From Burkholderiales bacterium (GTDB lineage Bacteria > Pseudomonadota > Gammaproteobacteria > Burkholderiales > SG8-41), in the NCBI GenBank assembly GCA_035574195.1, contig DATLZE010000066.1, forward strand, positions 19,066 to 83,065: DNA of 64,000 nt, read 5' to 3'. Position 1 is the first letter of the stretch; each line of letters opens with the position of its first letter. The notes under the pieces were generated by a model that did no database searches, had not been told where the DNA came from, and was given only the letters and a program-made list of their open reading frames with translations. This document shows positions 31,297 to 52,298 of this stretch, piece by piece. A program made the position numbers and the translations under genes.

Positions 31297-31884
31297 ATGG
31301 GTGCAATCCTGGTATGCGGCGTGGACGAAGCGGGGCGCGGGCCACTCGCCGGGCCGGTCACCGCCGCCGCCGTGATTCTCGAGCGGTCGCGACCGATCGC
31401 GGGGATCGCCGACTCCAAGACGCTCGCGCCCGCGAGGCGCGAGGCGCTGGCGCGGGAAATTCGCGCCCGGGCGCTCGCCTGCTCGGTGGCGAGCGCGAGC
31501 GTGGAGGAGATCGACTCGCTCAACATCCTGCAGGCGACTCTGCTCGCCATGCGCCGCGCCGTGGAGGGGCTGGGTATCAGGCCAGAGGAAGTGCTGGTGG
31601 ACGGAACGCATCTGCCCCGGCTCGACGTGCCCGCGCGCGCGGTCCCGCGCGGGGACGCCACGGTCTCCGCGATCGCAGCCGCCTCCATTCTGGCCAAGGT
31701 CGCGCGCGACGCCATGATGCTGGAGCTGCATCGGGTGCATCCCGAGTACGGCTTCGACCGGCACAAGGGCTATCCTACCGCGGAGCACCTCGCGGCACTG
31801 AAGAGATACGGGGTCTCGGCCGCGCACCGGCGCAGCTTCGCGCCGGTGCGCGCGCTGCTCGAGATTCGCTCTCGCGAGCCCTGA
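31297..31884 (+). CDS. rnhB: Ribonuclease HII
   Basis: 195 aa. [15 protein letters not shown] catalytic motif. Confidence 0.95.
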
Positions 31885-31986
31885 ATTGGGGACCGAGAAT
31901 CGAGAAAAACATGCTGCCCGCGCACCGCTCGCTGTCTCTTGCGCGATATGCAATTCGCTGAAAATGCGCGGAGCACCTTGGCGGCA

Positions 31987-32020
31987 GACCGCCGTTTACT
32001 GTTTGCCGACCACCGTTTAC
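31987..32020 (+). repeat. Two 13-nt direct repeats GACCnCCGTTTAC phased 21 bp apart, abutting the start codon of the next gene
   Basis: Copy 1 is at 31987-31999 (gaccgccgtttac) and copy 2 at 32008-32020 (gaccaccgtttac). Confidence 0.6.
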
Positions 32021-32021
32021 C

Positions 32022-32477
32022 ATGCGGGTCATGAAAATCGCTTTGATGTTCCATCTGCTCGGTGCAGTGGTCTGGATCGGGGGCATGTTTTTCGCTTATC
32101 TCGTGTTGCGGCCGGCGGCCTCCCGCTTCGAGCCTGCCCACAGGCTTGCGCTGTGGGCCGCGGTCCTGGAGCGCTTTTTCCGCTGGGTGTGGGCGGCAGT
32201 GGCGTCGATCCTCGCGAGCGGGTTCTACATGTTAGCGGCGATCGCCGATGCGGGCCGGGTTCCGCTCTATGTCCATCTGATGCTCTATGCCGGAGTGCTG
32301 ATGATGCTGATCTTCGCCTACGCGTTTTTCTCGCCGTATCCGGCACTGCGGCGCGCCGTGGCCGCGCAGGACTGGACGGCGGCGGCAGCAGCGCTCGACC
32401 AGATCCGCCTCGCCGTCGCCGTGAACCTCGCGCTCGGGCTGATCAATCTCGTCATCGCGACCGCGGGCGCCATATAG
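32022..32477 (+). CDS. Small integral membrane protein, CopD-like (4 predicted TM helices)
   Basis: 151 aa. MKIALMFHLLGAVVWIGGMFFAYLVLRP... resembles short CopD-family proteins; the family assignment is from memory only. The start may instead be 32031. Confidence 0.55.
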   Translation: MRVMKIALMFHLLGAVVWIGGMFFAYLVLRPAASRFEPAHRLALWAAVLERFFRWVWAAVASILASGFYMLAAIADAGRVPLYVHLMLYAGVLMMLIFAYAFFSPYPALRRAVAAQDWTAAAAALDQIRLAVAVNLALGLINLVIATAGAI

Positions 32478-32513
32478 CCTCGGTCTCCAAGGCAGGAGGC
32501 GGTCCCGCGGCCG

Positions 32514-33458
32514 TCAACGCAGCTCGGCGAGGAGCCGCCCCAGGCTCTCGCGCTCGCGCCGGACGGTCACCAGCCGTCTGCGCTCCCGGCACTGCTGCCG
32601 CAGCAGCCAGTGGAAGCGGGGATCGCTCTCCACACGCCACATCAGGCGTGCGAGCGCGCGCGCGTCCTCCAGGGGAAAATAGCCGCGGTAGCGGGCGCCG
32701 AGCATGCCGACGTTGCCCGGAATGCGCGAGGCGAGCACCGGAGTTCCGGCTGCGAGCGCCTCGGACACGACGTTGGCGCCGCCTTCCATGCGCGAACTGA
32801 TCACCATCGCGCGGGCGCGAGCGAGCAGCCGCAGCGCCTTTCCGTGTGCAACCTCTCCCAGCCAGCGGTAGCGCGGCTCGCGCTCGCTCCAGGCACGCGC
32901 GGCCTGGGCCATTTCCGGGCTCATTGCCGCGCCGATGTGCGTGATGCGGATGCGGCTTTCTGCAGGCAGGTGGGCGAGCGCCTGCGCGGCACGGAAAGGA
33001 TCCTTTTCCTCGCGCAGGTGCCCGCTCACCACGATCTCGAAGCAGCGCTTGAGCGGAGGGCAGGCGGCGGCGCGCGCCGACTGGTAGATCACGCGCGTCT
33101 TGCGGCGCAGATCGGGGGCGAGCTCGTCGAGCCCGCGCTCCTGCAACACCACCATGCGGGTGGCGAGCCGCATGGATTCGCGGGCGTTCGCGTCGAACCG
33201 GATGTCGCGGTAGAGATCGGTGCCGGTCAGCGCCAGCACGATCGGGCGCTCTGGCCAGGTCTCGGCGAAGCGCCGGATGGAGTCATGGCTGCGGCGCGCG
33301 TGCAACGCGATCAGGACGTCCGCCGCGGCGCCATCCCATTCGACTTGCACGCGCACCCGGTGGCCCATCGCGCGCAGCAGCGCCGCCCAACGGTCCGCGG
33401 TGGTGCGGTTGCCGTGGCGCGTGCCGGCCGCGGCGGGTGTGGCGATCGCGATTTTCAC
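32514..33458 (-). CDS. senB: SenB-like glycosyltransferase (selenosugar synthase family, TIGR04348-type)
   Basis: 314 aa, GTG start. N-terminus MKIAIATPAAAGTRHGNRTTADRWAALLRAMGHRV, and C-terminal GT-B half ...ISSRMEGGANVVSEALAAGTPVLASRIPGNVGML. It is divergently paired with an EgtB-like gene. The family call is from remembered sequence features and was not searched. Confidence 0.65.
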   Translation of the reverse strand: MKIAIATPAAAGTRHGNRTTADRWAALLRAMGHRVRVQVEWDGAAADVLIALHARRSHDSIRRFAETWPERPIVLALTGTDLYRDIRFDANARESMRLATRMVVLQERGLDELAPDLRRKTRVIYQSARAAACPPLKRCFEIVVSGHLREEKDPFRAAQALAHLPAESRIRITHIGAAMSPEMAQAARAWSEREPRYRWLGEVAHGKALRLLARARAMVISSRMEGGANVVSEALAAGTPVLASRIPGNVGMLGARYRGYFPLEDARALARLMWRVESDPRFHWLLRQQCRERRRLVTVRRERESLGRLLAELR

Positions 33459-33505
33459 CGGAGCGCGTTGCCGCTACACTTTGGCTCATTTTCACACAGC
33501 CGGCC

Positions 33506-34810
33506 ATGAGCGAGCCAGCATCCACGTTCGGTGTCGCCGGGCTGCGGCGCCTGCTGCTCGAGGCGCGCGCCCGCACCCTCGCCCATGCGCACGATCTGCA
33601 CGGCGCACAGCTGCTGGGGCCGCGCCTCGCGATCGTCAACCCGCCGCTGTGGGAAATCGGCCACGTCGGCTGGTTCCAGGAATACTGGTGCCTGCGCCAC
33701 CGGCCGCGGCGAACGCCGCTGGCACCGCTGCTTCCGGGCGCCGATGCGCTCTACGATTCCGCGATCGTTCCCCATGCCGCGCGCTGGGACCTGCCCCTGC
33801 CCGGGCTCGAGGCGACGCTGCGCTATCTCGAACGGGTCCTGCAGCGCGTGCTCGAGCGCCTCGAGCGGGAGGGCGCCACGCCGCACTTGCGCTACTTCGT
33901 CCAGCTCGCCGCGTATCACGAGGAAATGCACTGCGAGGCGTTCACCTACACGCGCCAGACGCTCGGCTATGCCGCCCCCCCTGACGGTCCCGTGAAGGCC
34001 GGGCTGGGCGCCGGGCCCTGTCCGGGCGATGTCGAGATCCCGGGCGGTGAATTTCTCCTGGGCGCCTCGCCGCAGGACGCATCCTTCGTCTTCGACAATG
34101 AAAAATGGGCGCATCGCGTGCGGGTCGCGCCGTTCGCGATCGCGCGCGCCCCGGTCACCAACGCCGAATTCGCCGCCTTCGTCGCCGACGGCGGCTACTG
34201 CCGGCGCGAGCTGTGGAGCAGGGCGGGCTGGCGCTGGCGGGAACAGGCCCGGGTCAATGGCCCTCTGTACTGGGAGAAGAACGGCGGAGACTGGATGCGC
34301 CGCCTCTACGACAGGATGATCGAGCTTTCGCCTCATGCGCCCGTGATCCATGTCAGCTGGTACGAGGCGGACGCTTATTGCCGCTGGGCGGGGCGGCGGC
34401 TGCCGACGGAGGCCGAATGGGAATTCGCTGCCGCTGCGGTGCCCGCTGTGGCCGGCGAGAAGCGCAAGTATCCGTGGGGCGATGCGGACGGGCAAGCGCA
34501 ACGGGCCAACTTGTATGGAACGCTCGGCACCTGCGCCGACGTCGCGGCGTTTCCGGAAGGCGACAGCGCATGGGGCTGCCGCCAGATGCTGGGCAACGTC
34601 TGGGAATGGGTCGCCGACTGGTTCGGTCCCTACCCGGGTTATATCCGCGACCCCTACAAGGAGTACTCGGAGCCTTGGTTCGGCGACCACAAGGTGCTGC
34701 GCGGCGGCAGCTTCGCGACGCGCGCGGCGCTGCTGCGCAATACCTGGCGCAATTTCTACACGCCGGACCGGCGCGACGTCTTCGCCGGATTCCGCACCTG
34801 CGCGGCGTGA
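33506..34810 (+). CDS. senA: EgtB-family non-heme-iron C-S/C-Se bond-forming synthase, SenA-like (selenoneine synthase candidate)
   Basis: 434 aa. DinB_2-type 3-His site (WEIGHVGWFQEYW ... AAYHEEMHCEAF) plus an FGE-sulfatase domain (...NVWEWVADWF...VLRGGSFATR...FAGFRTCA). It is adjacent to the SenB-like GT. Confidence 0.7.
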   Translation: MSEPASTFGVAGLRRLLLEARARTLAHAHDLHGAQLLGPRLAIVNPPLWEIGHVGWFQEYWCLRHRPRRTPLAPLLPGADALYDSAIVPHAARWDLPLPGLEATLRYLERVLQRVLERLEREGATPHLRYFVQLAAYHEEMHCEAFTYTRQTLGYAAPPDGPVKAGLGAGPCPGDVEIPGGEFLLGASPQDASFVFDNEKWAHRVRVAPFAIARAPVTNAEFAAFVADGGYCRRELWSRAGWRWREQARVNGPLYWEKNGGDWMRRLYDRMIELSPHAPVIHVSWYEADAYCRWAGRRLPTEAEWEFAAAAVPAVAGEKRKYPWGDADGQAQRANLYGTLGTCADVAAFPEGDSAWGCRQMLGNVWEWVADWFGPYPGYIRDPYKEYSEPWFGDHKVLRGGSFATRAALLRNTWRNFYTPDRRDVFAGFRTCAA

Positions 34811-35628
34811 AGCGAATCAGCTCAGCAGACAATCCGCATTACAAGGCGCTGCGGCGCCTCGTTCAATCCTCCCAGGAGCGGAAGAAAACAGGGCTGTCGG
34901 TGCTCGATGGCGCACGCCTCGTCGCGGCCTATCGCGAGCAGGGCGGCACGCCCGAGGAAATCGTCATCAGCAACTCGGCAGGCGCCGATCCGCAGGTGCA
35001 GGCCCTGCTGCAGGATATGCCAGGATCGCAGCTCCTCGTGCTGAGCGACGCGCTGTTCGCGGGGCTGTCCTCGGTCGCGACACCGACCGGGATCCTCGCC
35101 GTGGTGAGGACCCCGCGCCCGCAGCCGCTACCGCAGGAAATGGACGCCTGCGTGATGCTGGAGGGGCTCCAGGATCCTGGCAACCTCGGCTCGATCCTGC
35201 GCACCTGCGCCGGGGCGGGGGTGCGCCACGTGCTGCTGTCGAGGGACGCGGTGCACGCCTGGTCACCGCGCGTGCTGCGCGCCGCGATGGGAGCGCATTT
35301 CGCGCTCCAGATCCACGAGCACGTTGACTTGGCGCAGGCAGCGGCCGCGTTTCCCGGAAAACGGATCGCGACTGATCGGCACGCCGTGCGCTCTCTCTAC
35401 GACGTGGATCTCACGGGCCGGGTCGCGCTGCTCTTCGGGCGCGAGGGCAGCGGCCTCACGCTCCGGCTCAAGCAGGCGGCCGACGAGGTGGTGGCGATTC
35501 CGATGCCGGGGGGGATCGAGTCGCTCAACGTCGCGGCAGCGGCGGCCGTGTGCCTGTTCGAGCGGGTGAGGCAGCTTTCAGCGCTCGGCGACCGATCATC
35601 GACTGCCTCCGGCAAGGGAGGAAGCTGA
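34807..35628 (+). CDS. SpoU/TrmH-family RNA 2'-O-methyltransferase
   Basis: GTG start overlaps the senA stop (GTGA), giving 273 aa. Motifs LEGLQDPGNLGSILRTCAGAG, LLFGREGSGL and IPMPGGIESLNVAAAAAVCLFE. Confidence 0.88.
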   Translation: MKRISSADNPHYKALRRLVQSSQERKKTGLSVLDGARLVAAYREQGGTPEEIVISNSAGADPQVQALLQDMPGSQLLVLSDALFAGLSSVATPTGILAVVRTPRPQPLPQEMDACVMLEGLQDPGNLGSILRTCAGAGVRHVLLSRDAVHAWSPRVLRAAMGAHFALQIHEHVDLAQAAAAFPGKRIATDRHAVRSLYDVDLTGRVALLFGREGSGLTLRLKQAADEVVAIPMPGGIESLNVAAAAAVCLFERVRQLSALGDRSSTASGKGGS

Positions 35629-35683
35629 ATATTGCGCTTCCTATGCCGCTTGGAGCTGATCGCTGCAAGCCGATAACTGGCGG

Positions 35684-36508
35684 CTAATAGATCCTCCGCA
35701 CCAGCTTCGCCTCGTGCAGGATGGTCGTCGCCAGCTCCTCGACCGACTTGCTGGTCGCGTCGAGGTAGGGAATGCCTTCCTGGCGCATCAGCGCCTCTGC
35801 GGCGCGCACCTCGTACTCGCAGTTGGCGAGCGTGGCGTAGCGGCTGCCCGGCCGGCGCTCGTTGCGGATCTGTTGCAGCCGCTCCGGCTGGATGGTGAGC
35901 CCATAGAGCCGGCGCTTGAGCGGCCGCAGCTGCGCCGGCAGCTGCCGGTGCTCGAAGTCCTCGGGGATCAGCGGATAGTTGGCAGCGCGCACGCCGTACT
36001 GCATCGCGAGGTAGAGGCAGGTCGGGGTCTTGCCGCAGCGCGATACCCCGACCAGGATCACGTCGGCGTCGGCGAGGTTGCGCGTGGCGTGGCCGTCGTC
36101 GTGCGCGAGCGCGTAGTTCACCGACTCGATGCGGTGATGGTAATTCACGAAGTCGGTGACGCTGTGCGAGCGACCGACCGCGTGCGAGGCCTTCACGCCG
36201 AGCTCGCGCTCGAGCGGCGAGATGAAGATCTCGAAGCAGTCGAGAAACAGGGCGTTTGCCTGTCCGACGACTTGCGCGATCTCGGTGCGAGCGAGCGTGC
36301 TGATCACGATCGGGCGCACGCCGTCTGCTGTGCCCTGGCGGTTGATCCGTTCCACGGCCTCGCGCGCCTTCTCCGGCGTGTCCACGAAGGGCAGCGTCAC
36401 TTCCTCGAACTGCACCCCGTCGAACTGAGTGAGCAGGCTGTGCCCGAGCATCTCCGCGGTAATGCCGGTACGGTCGGAAACGAAGAATGCCGTGCGCTTG
36501 TGCGCCAT
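35684..36508 (-). CDS. ppsR: PEP synthase regulatory protein (pyruvate, water dikinase kinase/phosphotransferase)
   Basis: ORF trimmed to [19 protein letters not shown], giving 274 aa. P-loop [10 protein letters not shown]. It is divergent from ppsA. Confidence 0.93.
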
Positions 36509-44647: not shown

Positions 44648-47600
44648 TTGACCGCGTTCCCGATCCCCGTCCCGGAATCCGGCCTTGAGTTCGGCGATCT
44701 TTACCAGCGCGAAGGGCTGCTGCGGCTCGACAGGCTGTTCCTCGAGCGACTGAAGCGCGAGGATCCCGCGCTTCACGATCGGCTCGAGCGCGGCCGTGCC
44801 GACCCCGCAGCGCTCGCCCCTCTGCAGGAGTCCGAACTGCTGCTCGAGCTCGCTCCTCGCCTCGAGCGCTTCATCGCGTGGCTCTTCGGCATCGAGGCCG
44901 AAGCGGCTGCGCTCTCCGCCCGCCACCGGGAGCTCGCGCCGCTCTACAGCGTCAGGCGCCAGTTTGTCCAGCGCAAAGCGATGCACCGCTTCACGCCGGC
45001 ACAGGCCGAGAAGCTCGACGGCCCGGCGCTCGCGGCGCGGCTCGAACAATGGATCGGGGAACCGCTCACCGAGCTCGCGTTCGCACGCCACGTCGCCGCC
45101 TGGGAAAAAGACCCTGCGGCGAACGCGGACCAGCTCGAGGCCGCGCTGCAATACGCTGCGTGGGCGGCGCTCACCGAAGCCGGGCGCGCCAGGCATCGCG
45201 CGGGCGTACTGTTCAAGGCGCCGCACAAGCTCGACCCGCAACGCCTCGTTCCCGCGGTCGAAGACCGGAGCCGGGGGTACACCGAGTACCGCTTCGGCCC
45301 GGAGCGGCTGCGCCGGCGCGAAGGTTTTCGCCTGACCGACGCCGGCACCGATCTCGCCGGCGCGCTCGGCGAGGCGCATTACTGCATCTGGTGCCACGAA
45401 CAGGGCAAGGACTCGTGTTCCAAGGGGCTGCTCGAAAAGGGGGCGAAGGGCCGGGGCGCGGCTTCCTTCAAGAAAAGCCCGCTCGGCGTGACGCTCGCGG
45501 GCTGCCCGCTCGAGGAGAAGATCTCCGAGTTCCACAAGGCGAAGGCCGAGGGTCACGCCATCGGCGCGCTCGCCATCATCGTCGTGGACAATCCGATGGT
45601 GGCCGCCACCGGGCACCGCATCTGCAACGACTGCATGAAATCGTGCATCTATCAAAAGCAGGAGCCGGTGAACATCCCGCAGGCCGAGACGAGGACGCTC
45701 AAGGACGTGCTGGAGCTCCCGTGGGGCTTCGAGATCTATTCGCTCCTCACGCGCTGGAACCCCCTCAACCTGCGCGCCCCATATCCCAAGCCTCCGAGCG
45801 GCCGGAGGGTGCTGGTAGCGGGCATGGGTCCGGCTGGCGTCGCGCTCGCGCACTACCTGATGAACGACGGCCATACGGTGGTGGGCGTGGACGGGCTGAA
45901 AATCGAGCCGCTCGCGCCGGAGCTCTCCGGCGTGAACGAGCGGGGCGCGCGCGTGCCGTTTCGCCCCGTGCGCGAGCTGAAGGAGCTCTACGAGGATCTC
46001 GACCGCCGCGTGATGGCGGGTTTCGGCGGAGTCGCCGAATACGGCATCACGGTGCGCTGGGACAAGAACTTCCTCAAGGTGTTGCGGCTGCTGCTCGAGC
46101 GCCGGCGCGAGTTCGCTCTCTTCGGCGGCGTGCGCTTCGGAAGCACGCTCGGCGTCGAGGACGCGTTCGCGCTGGGATTCGACCACGTCGCGCTCGCGAT
46201 CGGAGCCGGCCGCCCGACGGTGCTCGACCTTCCCAACGGGCTCGCCCGCGGCGTGCGCGCCGCTTCGGATTTTCTGATGGCGCTGCAGCTCACCGGCGCG
46301 GCGAGGACGGATTCGGTCGCCAACATGCAGCTGCGGCTGCCGGTAGTGGTGGTGGGCGGCGGGCTCACCGCGATCGATACCGCGACCGAGGCGCTCGCCT
46401 ATTATCCGGTGCAGGTCGAAAAATTCCTGCAGCGCTACGAGCGGCTCTCGCGCAGCCACGGCGAGGCCGCGGCGCGCGTCGCCTGGGACGAGGAGGAGCG
46501 AGAAATCGCCGACGAGTTCCTCGCGCACGCGCGGGCGATCCGCGAGGAGCGCGCCGCCGCCCGCGCCGAAGGGCGCGAGCCGCGGTTGCTCGAGCTGCTG
46601 CAGTCGTGGGGCGGCGTCACCATCGCCTACCGCAAGCGCCTGATTGACAGTCCCTCGTACACGCTCAACCACGAGGAAGTGCACAAGGCGCTGGAGGAGG
46701 GCGTGCGCTTCGCCGAGGGGCTCACGCCCCTCGCGGTCGAGGTGGACGAGCACGGACACGCGCGCGCGCTCAGGGTCTCGGTCCAGCGGCGCGAACCGGA
46801 CGGCAGCTGGGTCGAGACCGCGCGCACGGAGCTGCCGGCACGCACCATCCTGATCGCCGCCGGCACCCAGCCCAATACGGTGCTCGCGCGCGAGAACCCG
46901 TCGCGCTTCAGGCTCGACGGGCGCCACTTTCAGGCCTGCGACGAGGAGGGCAATCCGCTTCCGGTCGAAATGAACGCCGCCAAGCCCGAGGCGGTGCGGG
47001 TGCTGCTGTCGAAGAGCCCCGACGGGCGCTTCCTGAGTTTTTTCGGCGACGTCCATCCCTCCTACTTCGGTAACGTGGTGAAGGCGATCGGCAGCGCGCG
47101 TCAGGGCTATCCCGTCGTGAGCCGTGTGCTCGCGCGCCGGCCGCCGGCTTTCGCGGGAAGCGACGAGGCGTTTTTCTCGCGGCTGAACGAGGAGCTGCGC
47201 GCCACGGTGCACGGCGTGGAGCGCCTCACCCCGCTGATCGTCGAGGTGGTGGTGCGCGCTCCCGCCGCGGCGCGGCGCTTCCGCCCCGGGCAGTTCTATC
47301 GCCTGCAGAACTACGAGGCCCACGCCGCCGGTGCCGAAGGCACGCGCCTCGCCATGGAAGGCATCGCGCTCACCGGCGCCTGGGTAGACCGCGAGCGGGG
47401 GCTCGTCTCCGCCATCGTGCTCGAGATGGGCGGCTCCTCCGACCTCTGCGCGCTGCTCAAGCCGGGCGAGCCGGTAGTGCTGATGGGGCCGACGGGCTCG
47501 CCCACCGAAATTCCCTCGGGCGAGACGGTGGTGCTCGCCGGCGGCGGGCTCGGCAACGCGGTGTTGTTCTCGATCGGGCAGGCGTTGCGCCGCGCCGGCA

Positions 47601-48181
47601 GCCGCGTGCTCTACTTCGCCGGCTACAAGCACATGGCCGACCGCTACAAGGTGCACGAGATCGAGGCGGCGGCCGACGCGGTGGTGTGGTGCTGCGACGA
47701 GGAGCCAGGCTTCATCCCGGGGCGCCCCCAGGACCGGAGCTTCGTCGGCAACATCGTGCAGGGCATGCTCGCCTACGCGAGCGGGGCGCTCGGCGCGCAG
47801 CCGATCCCGTTCGGTGCGGCCGACCGCATCATCGCGATCGGCTCCGACCGCATGATGGCAGCGGTCGCGCGCGCACGGCACGACGTGCTCGCGCCCTATC
47901 TCAAGCCTCACCATTTCGGCATCGGCTCGATCAACTCGCCGATGCAGTGCATGATGAAGGAGATCTGCGCGCAGTGCCTGCAGCCGCACGTGGACCGCGC
48001 GACCGGGAAGGTGAGCTACGTCTTCTCCTGCTTCAACCAGGATCAGCCGCTCGACCAGGTGGACTGGGACGCGCTCGCGGCGCGGCTGCGCCAGAACTCG
48101 GTGCAGGAAAAGCTCACCGCGGAGTGGATAGACCATTGCCTGGTCGCGCTCGGCGCGCGCGCCATGCCACGCAGTATCTAG
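44648..48181 (+). CDS. Large fused Fe-S flavoprotein: unknown N-terminal domain + NfnB/GltD-like module + PyrK/NfnA (FNR-like, [2Fe-2S]) module
   Basis: 1177 aa, TTG start. Cys clusters CIWCHEQGKDSC and CNDCMKSC. Dinucleotide folds VLVAGMGPAGVALA, VVVVGGGLTAIDTA and VVLAGGGLGNAVL. FNR strand RPGQFYRL. C-terminal motif C-x5-C-x2-C-x17-C. Confidence 0.85.
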   Translation: MTAFPIPVPESGLEFGDLYQREGLLRLDRLFLERLKREDPALHDRLERGRADPAALAPLQESELLLELAPRLERFIAWLFGIEAEAAALSARHRELAPLYSVRRQFVQRKAMHRFTPAQAEKLDGPALAARLEQWIGEPLTELAFARHVAAWEKDPAANADQLEAALQYAAWAALTEAGRARHRAGVLFKAPHKLDPQRLVPAVEDRSRGYTEYRFGPERLRRREGFRLTDAGTDLAGALGEAHYCIWCHEQGKDSCSKGLLEKGAKGRGAASFKKSPLGVTLAGCPLEEKISEFHKAKAEGHAIGALAIIVVDNPMVAATGHRICNDCMKSCIYQKQEPVNIPQAETRTLKDVLELPWGFEIYSLLTRWNPLNLRAPYPKPPSGRRVLVAGMGPAGVALAHYLMNDGHTVVGVDGLKIEPLAPELSGVNERGARVPFRPVRELKELYEDLDRRVMAGFGGVAEYGITVRWDKNFLKVLRLLLERRREFALFGGVRFGSTLGVEDAFALGFDHVALAIGAGRPTVLDLPNGLARGVRAASDFLMALQLTGAARTDSVANMQLRLPVVVVGGGLTAIDTATEALAYYPVQVEKFLQRYERLSRSHGEAAARVAWDEEEREIADEFLAHARAIREERAAARAEGREPRLLELLQSWGGVTIAYRKRLIDSPSYTLNHEEVHKALEEGVRFAEGLTPLAVEVDEHGHARALRVSVQRREPDGSWVETARTELPARTILIAAGTQPNTVLARENPSRFRLDGRHFQACDEEGNPLPVEMNAAKPEAVRVLLSKSPDGRFLSFFGDVHPSYFGNVVKAIGSARQGYPVVSRVLARRPPAFAGSDEAFFSRLNEELRATVHGVERLTPLIVEVVVRAPAAARRFRPGQFYRLQNYEAHAAGAEGTRLAMEGIALTGAWVDRERGLVSAIVLEMGGSSDLCALLKPGEPVVLMGPTGSPTEIPSGETVVLAGGGLGNAVLFSIGQALRRAGSRVLYFAGYKHMADRYKVHEIEAAADAVVWCCDEEPGFIPGRPQDRSFVGNIVQGMLAYASGALGAQPIPFGAADRIIAIGSDRMMAAVARARHDVLAPYLKPHHFGIGSINSPMQCMMKEICAQCLQPHVDRATGKVSYVFSCFNQDQPLDQVDWDALAARLRQNSVQEKLTAEWIDHCLVALGARAMPRSI

Positions 48182-49862: not shown

Positions 49863-49963
49863 GGCGGCGACCTGTGATCTGCGGCTATTTTGCCAGCGGC
49901 CGCGCGGATCGGCCATACTGCGTCCGGAACAGGCAAGGAGCCGCAAGACCTCGCAACCGGAGC

Positions 49964-50731
49964 ATGCCGCAGACGCCCATCCCCGCATCGAGCCCTCCGG
50001 TGGTGCTCGATAACGTCGCCAAGACCTACGACGGCCAGGTCGCGGTCCGCCCGACCACCCTGAGCGTGGAGGCGCACCGCATCTGCGTGCTGATCGGGCC
50101 GAGCGGCTGCGGCAAGTCCACGTTGCTGCGCATGATCCTGGGGCTGGTGCGCCCGGACCAGGGGCGGGTGTTGATCGCGGGCGAGGAGCTCGATGCGGAA
50201 AACGCGGTGCGGCTGCGCCGCGCGATCGGCTACGTAGTCCAAGACGGGGGTCTTTTTCCGCATCTCACCGCCGGCGACAACGTCACGCTGCTCGCGCGCT
50301 ACCTCGGGCGCGATCCGGCGTGGATCGCCGCGCGGCTCTCCGAGCTCGCCGCGCTGGTACGCCTTCCGGCCGCGGCACTCGCGCGCTATCCGCTGCAACT
50401 CTCGGGGGGGCAGCGCCAGCGCGTGGGCATCATGCGCGCGCTCATGCTCGATCCGCCCCTGCTGCTGCTCGACGAGCCGCTCGGAGCGCTCGATCCGGTG
50501 ACGCGTTTCGAGCTGCAGGAGGAGCTCAAGCAGCTCTTTCTCGAGCTGCGCAAGACGGTGGTGCTGGTCACGCACGACATGAACGAGGCAGCGCACTTCG
50601 GCGATCACATCGTTCTGCTGCGCGCAGGCGCCATCGTGCAGCAGGGGTCGCTGGAGGAGCTGCTCGCGCGGCCGGCCGAGCCCTACGTGCGCGATTTCAT
50701 CCGCGCGCAGCGCTCGACTCTGCCGCAGTAG
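49964..50731 (+). CDS. ABC transporter ATP-binding protein (osmoprotectant/quaternary-amine uptake family)
   Basis: 255 aa. Walker A GPSGCGKST, signature LSGGQRQRV, Walker B LLLLDEP. No CBS tail. Confidence 0.88.
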   Translation: MPQTPIPASSPPVVLDNVAKTYDGQVAVRPTTLSVEAHRICVLIGPSGCGKSTLLRMILGLVRPDQGRVLIAGEELDAENAVRLRRAIGYVVQDGGLFPHLTAGDNVTLLARYLGRDPAWIAARLSELAALVRLPAAALARYPLQLSGGQRQRVGIMRALMLDPPLLLLDEPLGALDPVTRFELQEELKQLFLELRKTVVLVTHDMNEAAHFGDHIVLLRAGAIVQQGSLEELLARPAEPYVRDFIRAQRSTLPQ

Positions 50732-50747
50732 CGGCGACGGGGACGAG

Positions 50748-52298
50748 ATGAACGCGCGATTTCCCTGGGTGCTCGGCGCGCTGCTCACCGGACTGTTCGC
50801 GCCGCCCGCTCCGGCGCAGGACACGATTCGAATCGGCTCCAAGCGCTTCACGGAGTCCTACATCCTGGGCGAGATCGTCACCCGCACGGTGGAGCGGGCG
50901 GGGGAGGCGCGCGCGTCGCACCAGCGCGGGCTCGGCAATACCGCGATCCTCTTCGCCGCCCTCAAAAGCGGCGCCGTGCACATGTATCCGGAATACACCG
51001 GAACCATCGCATTCGAGTTGCTGGGGCTGAAGCGCGCGCCGGAGGACATCGAGGCGCTCAACCGCGAGCTCTCGCCCCACGGCCTGGCCGTCGGCGTGCC
51101 GCTCGGTTTCAACAACACTTATGCGCTCGCCATGGCCGAGACGCGCGCGGCGGCGCTCGGCATACGCCGCATCTCGGATCTCGCGCAGCACGCCGGCCTG
51201 CGGTTCGGGCTGTCCCAGGAATTCATCAACCGCAAGGACGGCTGGCAGGCGCTGCGAGCCGCCTACGGATTCGCGGATACGCAGGTGCAAGGACTCGACC
51301 ACGGGCTCGCCTACGAGGCGCTCGCAGCCGGCCGGGTGGACGTCATCGACGCCTACACTACCGACGCCAAGATCGCCCGCTACCGGCTGCGCGTGCTGGA
51401 GGACGATCGCCGCTTTTTTCCCGCGTACGAGGCCGTGCTCCTCTACCGGGCCGATCTGCCGCAGCGCTATCCGCGGACCTGGCGCGCGCTGCAGTCGCTC
51501 GAACGGCGCATCACCGCCAGCCAGATGATCTCGATGAACGCCGCGGCCGAGCTCGGTGCGGTGCCCTTTTCGAGGATCGCCGATGATTTTCTCTCGGGAC
51601 GGATCGCCGCGGCGGGCCCCGGGGAATCCGGCAGGCGCTCCTTCCTCGAAACCCTGTTCGCCGGGGACTTCTGGCGGCTGACGGGCGAACACCTTCTGCT
51701 GGTGTTCAGCTCGCTCGCGTTGAGCGTCGTCGTCGGCGTCCCGCTCGGCATCCTCGCCGCGCGCGCGCCGCGCGCGCGGCACTTCATCCTGGGCGCGGCA
51801 GGCGTCCTGCAGACCATCCCATCGCTCGCGTTGCTCGCGTTCCTCATCGCGGCGCTCGGCCGCATCGGAACGGCACCTGCCGTGATTGCGCTTTTCCTCT
51901 ACGCGCTGCTGCCGATCGTGCGCAACACCTGCAGCGGGCTCGCCGACATCCCAGCACCGCTGCGCGAGTCCGCCGAGGCGCTGGGTCTGCCCGCTGGCGC
52001 GCGCCTGCGCCTGATCGAACTGCCGCTCGCCGCGCGCTCGATCCTCTCCGGGATCAAAACCTCCGGCGTGATCAACGTCGGCACCGCCACCATCGCCGCC
52101 TTCGTCGGCGCCGGTGGCTACGGCGAGCGCATCGTCGCCGGGCTGGCGGTGAACGACCATGCGCTGCTGCTCGCCGGGGCGCTGCCCGCGGCGGCGATGG
52201 CGCTCGCGATCGAAGGAGCCTTCGGCGCCCTCGACCGCGTCCTGATCTCCCCGGGCCTGCGCGAGCCCGGGGTGACATCCCGAGAGGAGGGGGCATAA
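50748..52298 (+). CDS. Fused ABC substrate-binding (N-terminal, glycine-betaine/choline-type) and permease protein
   Basis: 516 aa. Signal peptide; SBP part IRIGSKRFTESYILGEI...YPEYTGT. The C-terminal approx 210 aa form a multi-TM BPD permease (ALGLPAGARLRLIELPLA EAA-loop). Confidence 0.82.
   Translation: MNARFPWVLGALLTGLFAPPAPAQDTIRIGSKRFTESYILGEIVTRTVERAGEARASHQRGLGNTAILFAALKSGAVHMYPEYTGTIAFELLGLKRAPEDIEALNRELSPHGLAVGVPLGFNNTYALAMAETRAAALGIRRISDLAQHAGLRFGLSQEFINRKDGWQALRAAYGFADTQVQGLDHGLAYEALAAGRVDVIDAYTTDAKIARYRLRVLEDDRRFFPAYEAVLLYRADLPQRYPRTWRALQSLERRITASQMISMNAAAELGAVPFSRIADDFLSGRIAAAGPGESGRRSFLETLFAGDFWRLTGEHLLLVFSSLALSVVVGVPLGILAARAPRARHFILGAAGVLQTIPSLALLAFLIAALGRIGTAPAVIALFLYALLPIVRNTCSGLADIPAPLRESAEALGLPAGARLRLIELPLAARSILSGIKTSGVINVGTATIAAFVGAGGYGERIVAGLAVNDHALLLAGALPAAAMALAIEGAFGALDRVLISPGLREPGVTSREEGA

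Follow-up and report, generated by a model that had tools for sequence, protein, structure and literature searches.

The window analyzed here, a 64-kb stretch of a metagenome-derived Burkholderiales genome (contig DATLZE010000066.1), carries a divergently transcribed pair of genes for the selenosugar synthase SenB and the selenoneine synthase SenA, with neither a selenophosphate synthetase gene (selD, or senC in the sen clusters) nor egtD in the same stretch. We predict, with a probability of roughly 70%, that the pair is a two-gene selenoneine module, for which selenophosphate (made by SelD) and hercynine (made by EgtD) are supplied by unlinked genes. By homology, SenB would act as a selenosugar synthase converting selenophosphate and a UDP-sugar to a 1-seleno-sugar, which the Fe(II)- and O2-dependent SenA would join to C2 of hercynine; the resulting selenoxide would eliminate spontaneously, yielding selenoneine. 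The canonical cluster sometimes supplies SenC/SelD and EgtD in cis, whereas here both substrates would come from genes located elsewhere. The two genes are likely transcribed from overlapping divergent promoters, with senA read through into a methyltransferase gene, and the pair is inherited vertically within a core housekeeping block, between rnhB and a SpoU-family gene. The positions of the two genes in the window are as follows.

32514-33458, minus strand: senB, selenosugar synthase (Se-glycosyltransferase of the TIGR04348 family), 314 amino acids (aa), assigned by its match to TIGR04348.
33506-34810, plus strand: senA, non-heme-iron selenoxide (selenoneine) synthase of the long form, 434 aa, assigned by its match to NF041186.

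Both open reading frames (ORFs) lie where the original prediction had placed them. The senB gene begins with GTG, and the N-terminus of its product is MKIAIATPAAAGTRHGNRTTADRWAALLRAMGHRV; the N-terminal signature that had been ascribed to this protein is present, except that the part quoted as ...LGHRV actually reads ...MGHRV. The protein matches the NCBIfam model TIGR04348 (selenoneine biosynthesis selenosugar synthase SenB) with 419.8 bits (E = 5e-126, cut-off 300) and over its full length, residues 3-311 being aligned to model positions 1-309 of 310, while the next-best NCBIfam family scores 113 bits with a cut-off of 400. Pfam Glycos_transf_1 is found in the C-terminal half, at residues 141-293, and the top PDB matches, at about 228 bits, are the SenB structures 8K5U, 8JJN/8JJQ, and 8FBX.

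Mutagenesis and structures of SenB have assigned K158 to Se-P cleavage, N20, T83, and T85 to the selenophosphate pocket, N20, T23, and E231 to sugar binding, and E239 to ribose binding (PMC10891094). The window SenB keeps the equivalents of N20, T23, H58, T83, T85, D86, Q131, R155, K158, E231, and E239. In particular, its residues N17, T20, T78, T80, K152, and E225 align to N20, T23, T83, T85, K158, and E231, respectively, and these six positions are invariant in 77-80 of the 80 related sequences that were retrieved by a SenB scan over one genome per species. Family membership is thus borne out both by the curated equivalog cut-off and by the retained catalytic residues. The conserved sugar-donor motif of SenB is EGGAHV, with H235 contacting the sugar C-4' (PMC10891094). 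It reads EGGANV in the window protein, which keeps E231 and has Asn in place of H235, as do all 80 related sequences; judging from the alignment, we regard EGGANV as a subfamily variant of SenB. In addition, V157 is replaced by Glu in the window and in 65 of the 80 relatives.

The senA gene begins with ATG at 33506. An alternative upstream GTG at 33437 would extend the ORF into an overlap with senB; this start was rejected, because close relatives share the same ATG and the residues downstream of it (ATGAGCGAGCC in locus L016) and similarity vanishes upstream of the ATG. The GC content at third codon positions is 0.84-0.87 in senB and senA, matching that of the neighboring genes. The expected EgtB-like fold with DinB and FGE-sulfatase domains is recovered by Pfam (DinB_2, PF12867, residues 17-144; FGE-sulfatase, PF03781, residues 172-431). 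The protein scores 513.4 bits (E = 5e-154) on the NCBIfam model NF041186 (selenoneine synthase SenA), well above the cut-off of 420, and 343.3 bits on the EgtB model TIGR03440, that is, under the cut-off of 360. For comparison, an N-terminally truncated OvsA, the selenoxide synthase of the ovoselenol (ovs) system, reaches 409.7 bits on the SenA model and stays below its cut-off.

The active-site residues agree with this assignment. The published 17-position composite motifs (Methods of PMC11030361) are xNEH--HRHxHYYN(F/Y)(F/Y)R for SenA, ...YMQAYR for OvsA, and xSDH--RRHQHYYNWDR for type I EgtB. Positions were mapped by alignments to 4X8B, 8U41, and 8RYZ and by a separate alignment of our own. 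The window protein has N45, E50, H53 / H90, R93 / H138, M141, H142 / Y384, Y387 / N416, F417, Y418 / R422, and no position departs from the published SenA rule. In place of Arg87 and Asp416, which bind the thiol in EgtB, it has His and Tyr; the S/D positions of the type I EgtB motif are N/E, Gln137 is Met, and Trp415 is Phe. The residues Tyr387, Asn416, and Phe417 form the hercynine-type triad, at the place where OvsA has Met401, Gln430, and Ala431; mutation of this OvsA triad to Y/N/F gave a hercynine-using, C2-selective enzyme (ovoselenol study), and with this OvsA-YNF mutant the window protein reaches 315 bits, compared with 305.3 bits for the wild type. The SenA motif residues and the key residues of SenB are invariant or nearly so in the 71 SenA and 80 SenB related sequences. 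The 434-aa protein is therefore of the SenA type and falls outside the sulfur-specific EgtB enzymes, by the SenA model and composite motif on the one hand and the failed EgtB cut-off on the other.

The window SenA differs from the characterized enzyme of Variovorax paradoxus in length. A 46-residue segment of the FGE domain (residues 317-362, YPWGD...CRQML) is shared with OvsA and type I EgtB and is missing from V. paradoxus SenA; the complete SenA sequences of the related loci, 415-460 aa long, likewise keep it. With its 382 positions, the NCBIfam SenA model seems to derive from the short form. Identity over aligned positions is 45% to V. paradoxus SenA, 42% to OvsA, and 41% to EgtB, and it is the lack of the segment in V. 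paradoxus SenA that makes the window protein score pairwise nearer to OvsA and type I EgtB. A small phylogeny of the selenoxide synthases (neighbor-joining, EgtB-rooted, three reference sequences, indicative only) places the 434-aa protein with SenA and OvsA: V. paradoxus SenA is basal, and the window clade groups with OvsA and the other SenAs of the long form, which agrees with the recent divergence of OvsA from within SenA described in the literature. Since OvsA is the top PDB match, we considered that the protein might be OvsA itself; this was ruled out by the Y/N/F triad, found in place of M/Q/A.

The arrangement of the pair is fixed in a whole clade. The best SenB relative among the 80 loci, 77% identical, comes from a groundwater betaproteobacterial metagenome-assembled genome (MAG), and 59 related betaproteobacterial MAG loci share the gene order lpxB-rnhB-(copD-like)-senB<>senA-spoU-ppsR-ppsA, as in the window. 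The senA gene is paired with senB in 71 of the 81 loci (the 80 related loci and the window). Conservation was measured as protein identity relative to neighboring core genes and not as the ratio of nonsynonymous to synonymous substitution rates, since at about 65% protein identity synonymous sites have reached saturation. The median identities to the window are 67% for RnhB, 65% for SenB, 62% for SenA, 59% for LpxB, 55% for SpoU, and 47% for PpsR. As the values for SenB and SenA fall between those for RnhB and LpxB, the two genes evolve like their core-gene neighbors; hence the pair is old, vertically inherited, and under purifying selection, rather than a recent arrival or a decaying remnant.

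The window was searched for selD and egtD by six-frame tblastn (E <= 10) with SelD and EgtD probes that were validated against NCBIfam before use (SelD, 619 bits on NF002098, cut-off 299; EgtD, 381.8 bits on TIGR03438, cut-off 290.9). The SelD probe gave no match in the 64 kb, the EgtD probe gave a chance-level match alone (E = 1.2), and the scanned ORFs encode housekeeping functions; the absence of selD/senC and egtD from the window, noted originally from the letters, thus holds. The window could be traced to metagenome X1, which contains 99% of its sampled words, and to the hot-spring metagenomes X2-X5. Short selD-like fragments with at least 80% likeness to Thiobacillus selD occur at depths of 3-29 in the source metagenomes X1 and X2, none of them assignable to the organism. 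The contigs of the organism itself have a word depth of about 16-23 in metagenome X1, among many related strains.

With respect to the three-gene sen cluster of Kayrouz et al., defined as an egtB homolog, a TIGR04348 gene, and selD within 5 kb, senA and senB of the window are adjacent and selD is lacking. Kayrouz et al. found 827 of 2,353 TIGR04348 genes in such clusters and expected hercynine to be drawn from an unlinked egt pathway, and the ovoselenol paper described ovs gene sets that are chromosomally separated in some cases; a supply from unlinked genes is therefore plausible. The sen pair without an adjacent selD is real, but less unusual than had been implied: it is clade-wide, and split sen and ovs sets are already present in the literature. 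Split arrangements were thus implied before, and what is added here is a split layout extending over a whole clade.

Comparison with the characterized V. paradoxus DSM 30034 sen cluster (Kayrouz et al. 2022; structures 8FBX, 8JJN, 8K5I, and 8RYZ) reveals the same enzyme families encoded by adjacent genes, with the SenA composite motif, the catalytic Lys of SenB, and the selenophosphate pocket in common. Unlike that cluster, the window has no senC in its 64 kb, and its genes are divergent, instead of forming an operon overlapping selD, and are set in a housekeeping block; the enzymes differ as well, SenA being of the long form and about 45% identical, and SenB having EGGANV instead of EGGAHV and Glu for V157. 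The ovs system (Kayrouz et al. 2024; 8U41, 8U42, and 8UX5) combines the selenoxide synthase OvsA with SenB, SenC, and OvsM. OvsA is the best PDB relative of the window SenA (305-315 bits), has the same long-form architecture, and falls in the same SenA/OvsA group of the tree, whereas its Met401/Gln430/Ala431 triad serves histidine at C5, in contrast to the Tyr/Asn/Phe of the hercynine, C2 type in the window. Type I EgtB of Mycobacterium thermoresistibile (4X8B) shares the DinB and FGE fold, the 3-His iron site, the catalytic Tyr, the hercynine-binding Asn, and about 41% identity, but the window protein has His/Tyr for Arg87/Asp416 and N/E for S/D, stays below the TIGR03440 cut-off, and is partnered by senB and not by egtA, egtC, egtD, or egtE.

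Enzymes of the window type do occur with SelD and EgtD in other lineages. At locus L061, from a Rubrobacteraceae MAG, a senA of the long form and senB are divergent, and selD overlaps the senB end; selD-senA-senB sets with egtD within about 6.5 kb were found in a Gemmatimonadetes (L075) and a Latescibacterota (L078) genome. These clusters tie SenA and SenB of the window type to SelD and EgtD. Like the window, all three have long-form SenA (53-59% identity) and SenB with EGGANV, and L061 is also divergent; unlike the window and its 59 relatives, which have neither gene, they have selD at the pair, either adjacent or overlapping, with egtD nearby in L075 and L078.

Several related loci show features of their own. 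The selD gene of L078 (7422-8441, minus strand) is interrupted by a single in-frame TGA, which falls in the glycine-rich loop of the N-terminal part (...TCG*AAK...); as this is the usual catalytic Cys/Sec position of SelD, the protein probably contains selenocysteine. In a Thiobacillus MAG (L066, 10001-11985), senB is immediately followed by selD (522.7 bits on NF002098), a selenosugar cassette that lacks a selenoxide synthase, no senA being present within 10 kb. At four Sulfuricella loci (L039:9015-10942, L040:9191-10936, L043:9165-10936, and L048:2325-4070), with the isolate Sulfuricella sp. T08 among the genomes, senB lies directly beside spoU, the SenB of L040 scoring 444.5 bits on TIGR04348. 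Neither senA nor selD was found within flanks of 3-10 kb per side of these genes, which suggests either a clean loss of senA or a stand-alone role of the selenosugar synthase.

The intergenic region between senB and senA was found to be exactly 47 bp long, as had been predicted, and the following elements can be proposed in it.

33459-33505: divergent control region with two overlapping candidate promoters on opposite strands, marked by conserved blocks.
33475-33480, plus strand: putative senA -10 element, TACACT; throughout the clade, TA(C/A)ACT keeps a constant spacing to the start of senB.
33496-33488, minus strand: putative senB extended -10 element, TGTGAAAAT; most relatives have TG(T/C)TATAG(T) there, which on the plus strand is CTATA(A/G)CA.

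Of the 65 divergent pairs, 48 (the window and 47 related loci) have a gap of 40-75 bp. In the alignment of these 48 spacers only two blocks are conserved, TAnACT and CTATA(A/G)CA. The promoter hexamers proposed originally were recovered at their positions, and both -10 elements coincide with these two motifs. A -35-like TTTTCA is present at 33452-33457, 17 nt before TACACT; it overlaps the senB start codon, and the hexamer itself is constrained by the Met-Lys-Ile codons of senB. The Sulfuricella loci, having senB and no senA, keep the CTATA(A/G)CA-type motif and lack TA(C/A)ACT, as expected if the latter serves senA and the former serves senB.

A distance of 7 bp separates the two -10 hexamers, which are on opposite strands, and either predicted start site (about 33487, plus strand; about 33481, minus strand) falls beside the -10 element of the other promoter. 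Such spacing makes simultaneous occupancy by RNA polymerase unlikely, so that the two predicted promoters probably cannot be used at once. The octamer ATTTTCAC occurs twice, at 33451-33458 over the senB start codon and at 33488-33495 over the senB -10 element. A similar pair is found in L016 and is not seen in the subclade that has CTATAGCA.

Several points weigh against the prediction of a selenoneine module with unlinked supply. It places selD and egtD of the organism elsewhere in a genome of which 64 kb were seen. The 59 syntenic loci are all devoid of selD and egtD over flanks that add up to about 830 kb, with 28 loci having at least 5 kb on both sides (both figures include the window), and a clade-wide lack of these genes is therefore possible. 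SenA is just about 45% identical to the characterized V. paradoxus enzyme and carries the 46-aa segment absent there; SenB differs at two sugar-contacting positions (Glu for V157, Asn for H235), and its sugar donor may differ. Finally, a sigma-70 consensus scan of positions 31800-35800 reported no promoter at its threshold of 9/12 matches; the putative senA promoter matches the consensus at 8/12 and hence falls below the threshold, so the promoter assignment is drawn wholly from comparative conservation.

Some of the same observations would fit a pair that is active but makes a different product, SenB drawing on some donor in place of selenophosphate to form a thiosugar or a different chalcogen sugar, or SenA using another imidazole or betaine acceptor. 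The lack of selD and egtD in the window and at the 59 syntenic loci is compatible with this, as are the two SenB substitutions, and the senB genes without senA in Sulfuricella and, next to selD, in Thiobacillus indicate that SenB can have a role of its own. We nevertheless consider a different product unlikely. The acceptor triad is of the hercynine type, Y/N/F and not M/Q/A, and changing these very three residues reportedly turns OvsA into a hercynine-using enzyme; SenB retains an intact selenophosphate pocket and the Lys that cleaves the Se-P bond. A sulfur route in particular is improbable, because SenC/SelD does not make thiophosphate, and thioglucose is a very poor substrate of SenA, with the product stalling as the sulfoxide.

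A broader form of this idea, that senB-senA is a core module fully uncoupled from selenophosphate synthetase and egtD across a broad uncultured Burkholderiales clade and works with another donor or acceptor, seems to us quite doubtful. If it were true that these genomes lack selD or egtD, the pair would have to rely on another chalcogen donor, or on a betaine acceptor that is imported or of another kind. This would constitute a new route to seleno- or thio-imidazoles, and V157E and H235N of SenB could mark a different sugar or donor chemistry.

It is very improbable that the pair is a stranded remnant, persisting without substrate in a lineage that has lost senC/selD. The absence of selD from the sampled flanks is the sole observation in favor of this; both ORFs are intact, the catalytic residues are invariant across species in which SenB is 54-77% identical to that of the window, the proteins are as conserved as RnhB and LpxB, and the promoter motifs are conserved, whereas relics would decay. 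Finally, the possibility that the 434-aa protein belongs to the sulfur-type EgtB enzymes and forms ergothioneine, next to an unrelated glycosyltransferase, can practically be dismissed: its pairwise phmmer score is slightly higher with M. thermoresistibile EgtB (276.9 bits) than with V. paradoxus SenA (263.7 bits), but this is explained by the 46-aa segment missing from the latter, and the model scores, the replacement of the gamma-Glu-Cys-binding Arg87/Asp416 (by His/Tyr) and of S/D (by N/E), and the senB partner in 71 of the 81 loci all argue against it.

Among the genes surrounding the predicted selenoneine module, the closest is the methyltransferase gene downstream of senA.

34807-35628, plus strand: SpoU/TrmH-family RNA 2'-O-methyltransferase gene, with Pfam SpoU_methylase and an MRM3-like substrate-binding domain.

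The GTGA stop/start overlap of senA and this gene, 4 nt long, is read directly from the sequence, and the product was confirmed as a housekeeping SpoU-family protein, with RlmB-type models remaining under their cut-offs. It is a SPOUT-class RNA enzyme of the chromosomal backbone, and no methyltransferase of the OvsM type is present. The spoU gene adjoins senA in 51 related loci and adjoins senB directly in the Sulfuricella loci without senA. Because senB has spoU as its neighbor even at loci lacking senA, the methyltransferase lies outside the pathway. In many relatives, too, senA and spoU touch or overlap, and for this reason they are probably co-transcribed through the GTGA overlap.

Genes identified by the family scans in the remainder of the window are dapD, dapC, queF, smc, zipA, ligA, galU, glnD, map, and rpsB; folD, a gene for a GltD-like fusion protein, an aminotransferase gene, and an Opu-type ABC importer; and rpoE, rseB, degP, lepA, lepB, rnc, era, and recO, so that all scanned ORFs are of the housekeeping kind. 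In the regions outside the family scans (about 18.3-31.9 kb and 35.7-43.5 kb, and small ORFs at about 53.3-53.8 kb), genes were recognized by tblastn homology to relatives (LpxB, RnhB, PpsR, and PpsA) or by the expected gene order. No tRNA genes, tRNA-Sec included, were found in the 64-kb window.

Between rnhB and senB lies a gene for a 151-aa membrane protein with a CopD domain (32022-32477; PF05425, 49 bits), convergent with senB and separated from it by a 36-nt gap. Only about a dozen of the related loci show it, and senA is missing from four of these. The Opu-type importer (49874-52298) consists of a ProV-like ATPase and a 516-aa protein with fused binding domain and permease, and is located 15 kb from senA beside a divergent gene for an AptA-type aminotransferase. 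We considered this importer as a source of hercynine replacing EgtD and dropped the idea as unsupported: its binding domain scores no better with the ergothioneine-specific EgtUC structures (135 bits) than with an archaeal ProX (134.6 bits). The affinity of authentic EgtU for hercynine is about 10,000-fold lower than for ergothioneine. A 1177-aa fusion protein (44648-48181) matches the models for glutamate synthase beta subunit/2-polyprenylphenol hydroxylase with 790.9 bits, under the cut-off of 1072, and shows a weak partial match (65 bits, far under the cut-off) to YgfK, a putative selenate reductase subunit, which probably reflects a shared flavoprotein domain.

The known chemistry of the pathway is unchanged by these findings, and the long-form SenA and the EGGANV-type SenB represent uncharacterized sequence variants of structurally known enzymes. 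The conserved 47-bp region, as a putative bidirectional promoter, offers a compact target for regulation of the pathway. Genome mining that demands selD within 5 kb misses all of these loci, and the number of selenoneine-capable organisms would therefore be underestimated. The predicted module widens the range of the selenoneine pathway, bringing in a large betaproteobacterial group that is uncultured and stems from groundwater, soil, freshwater, and hot springs; in this group senB and senA behave as core genes and not as a mobile three-gene cluster.

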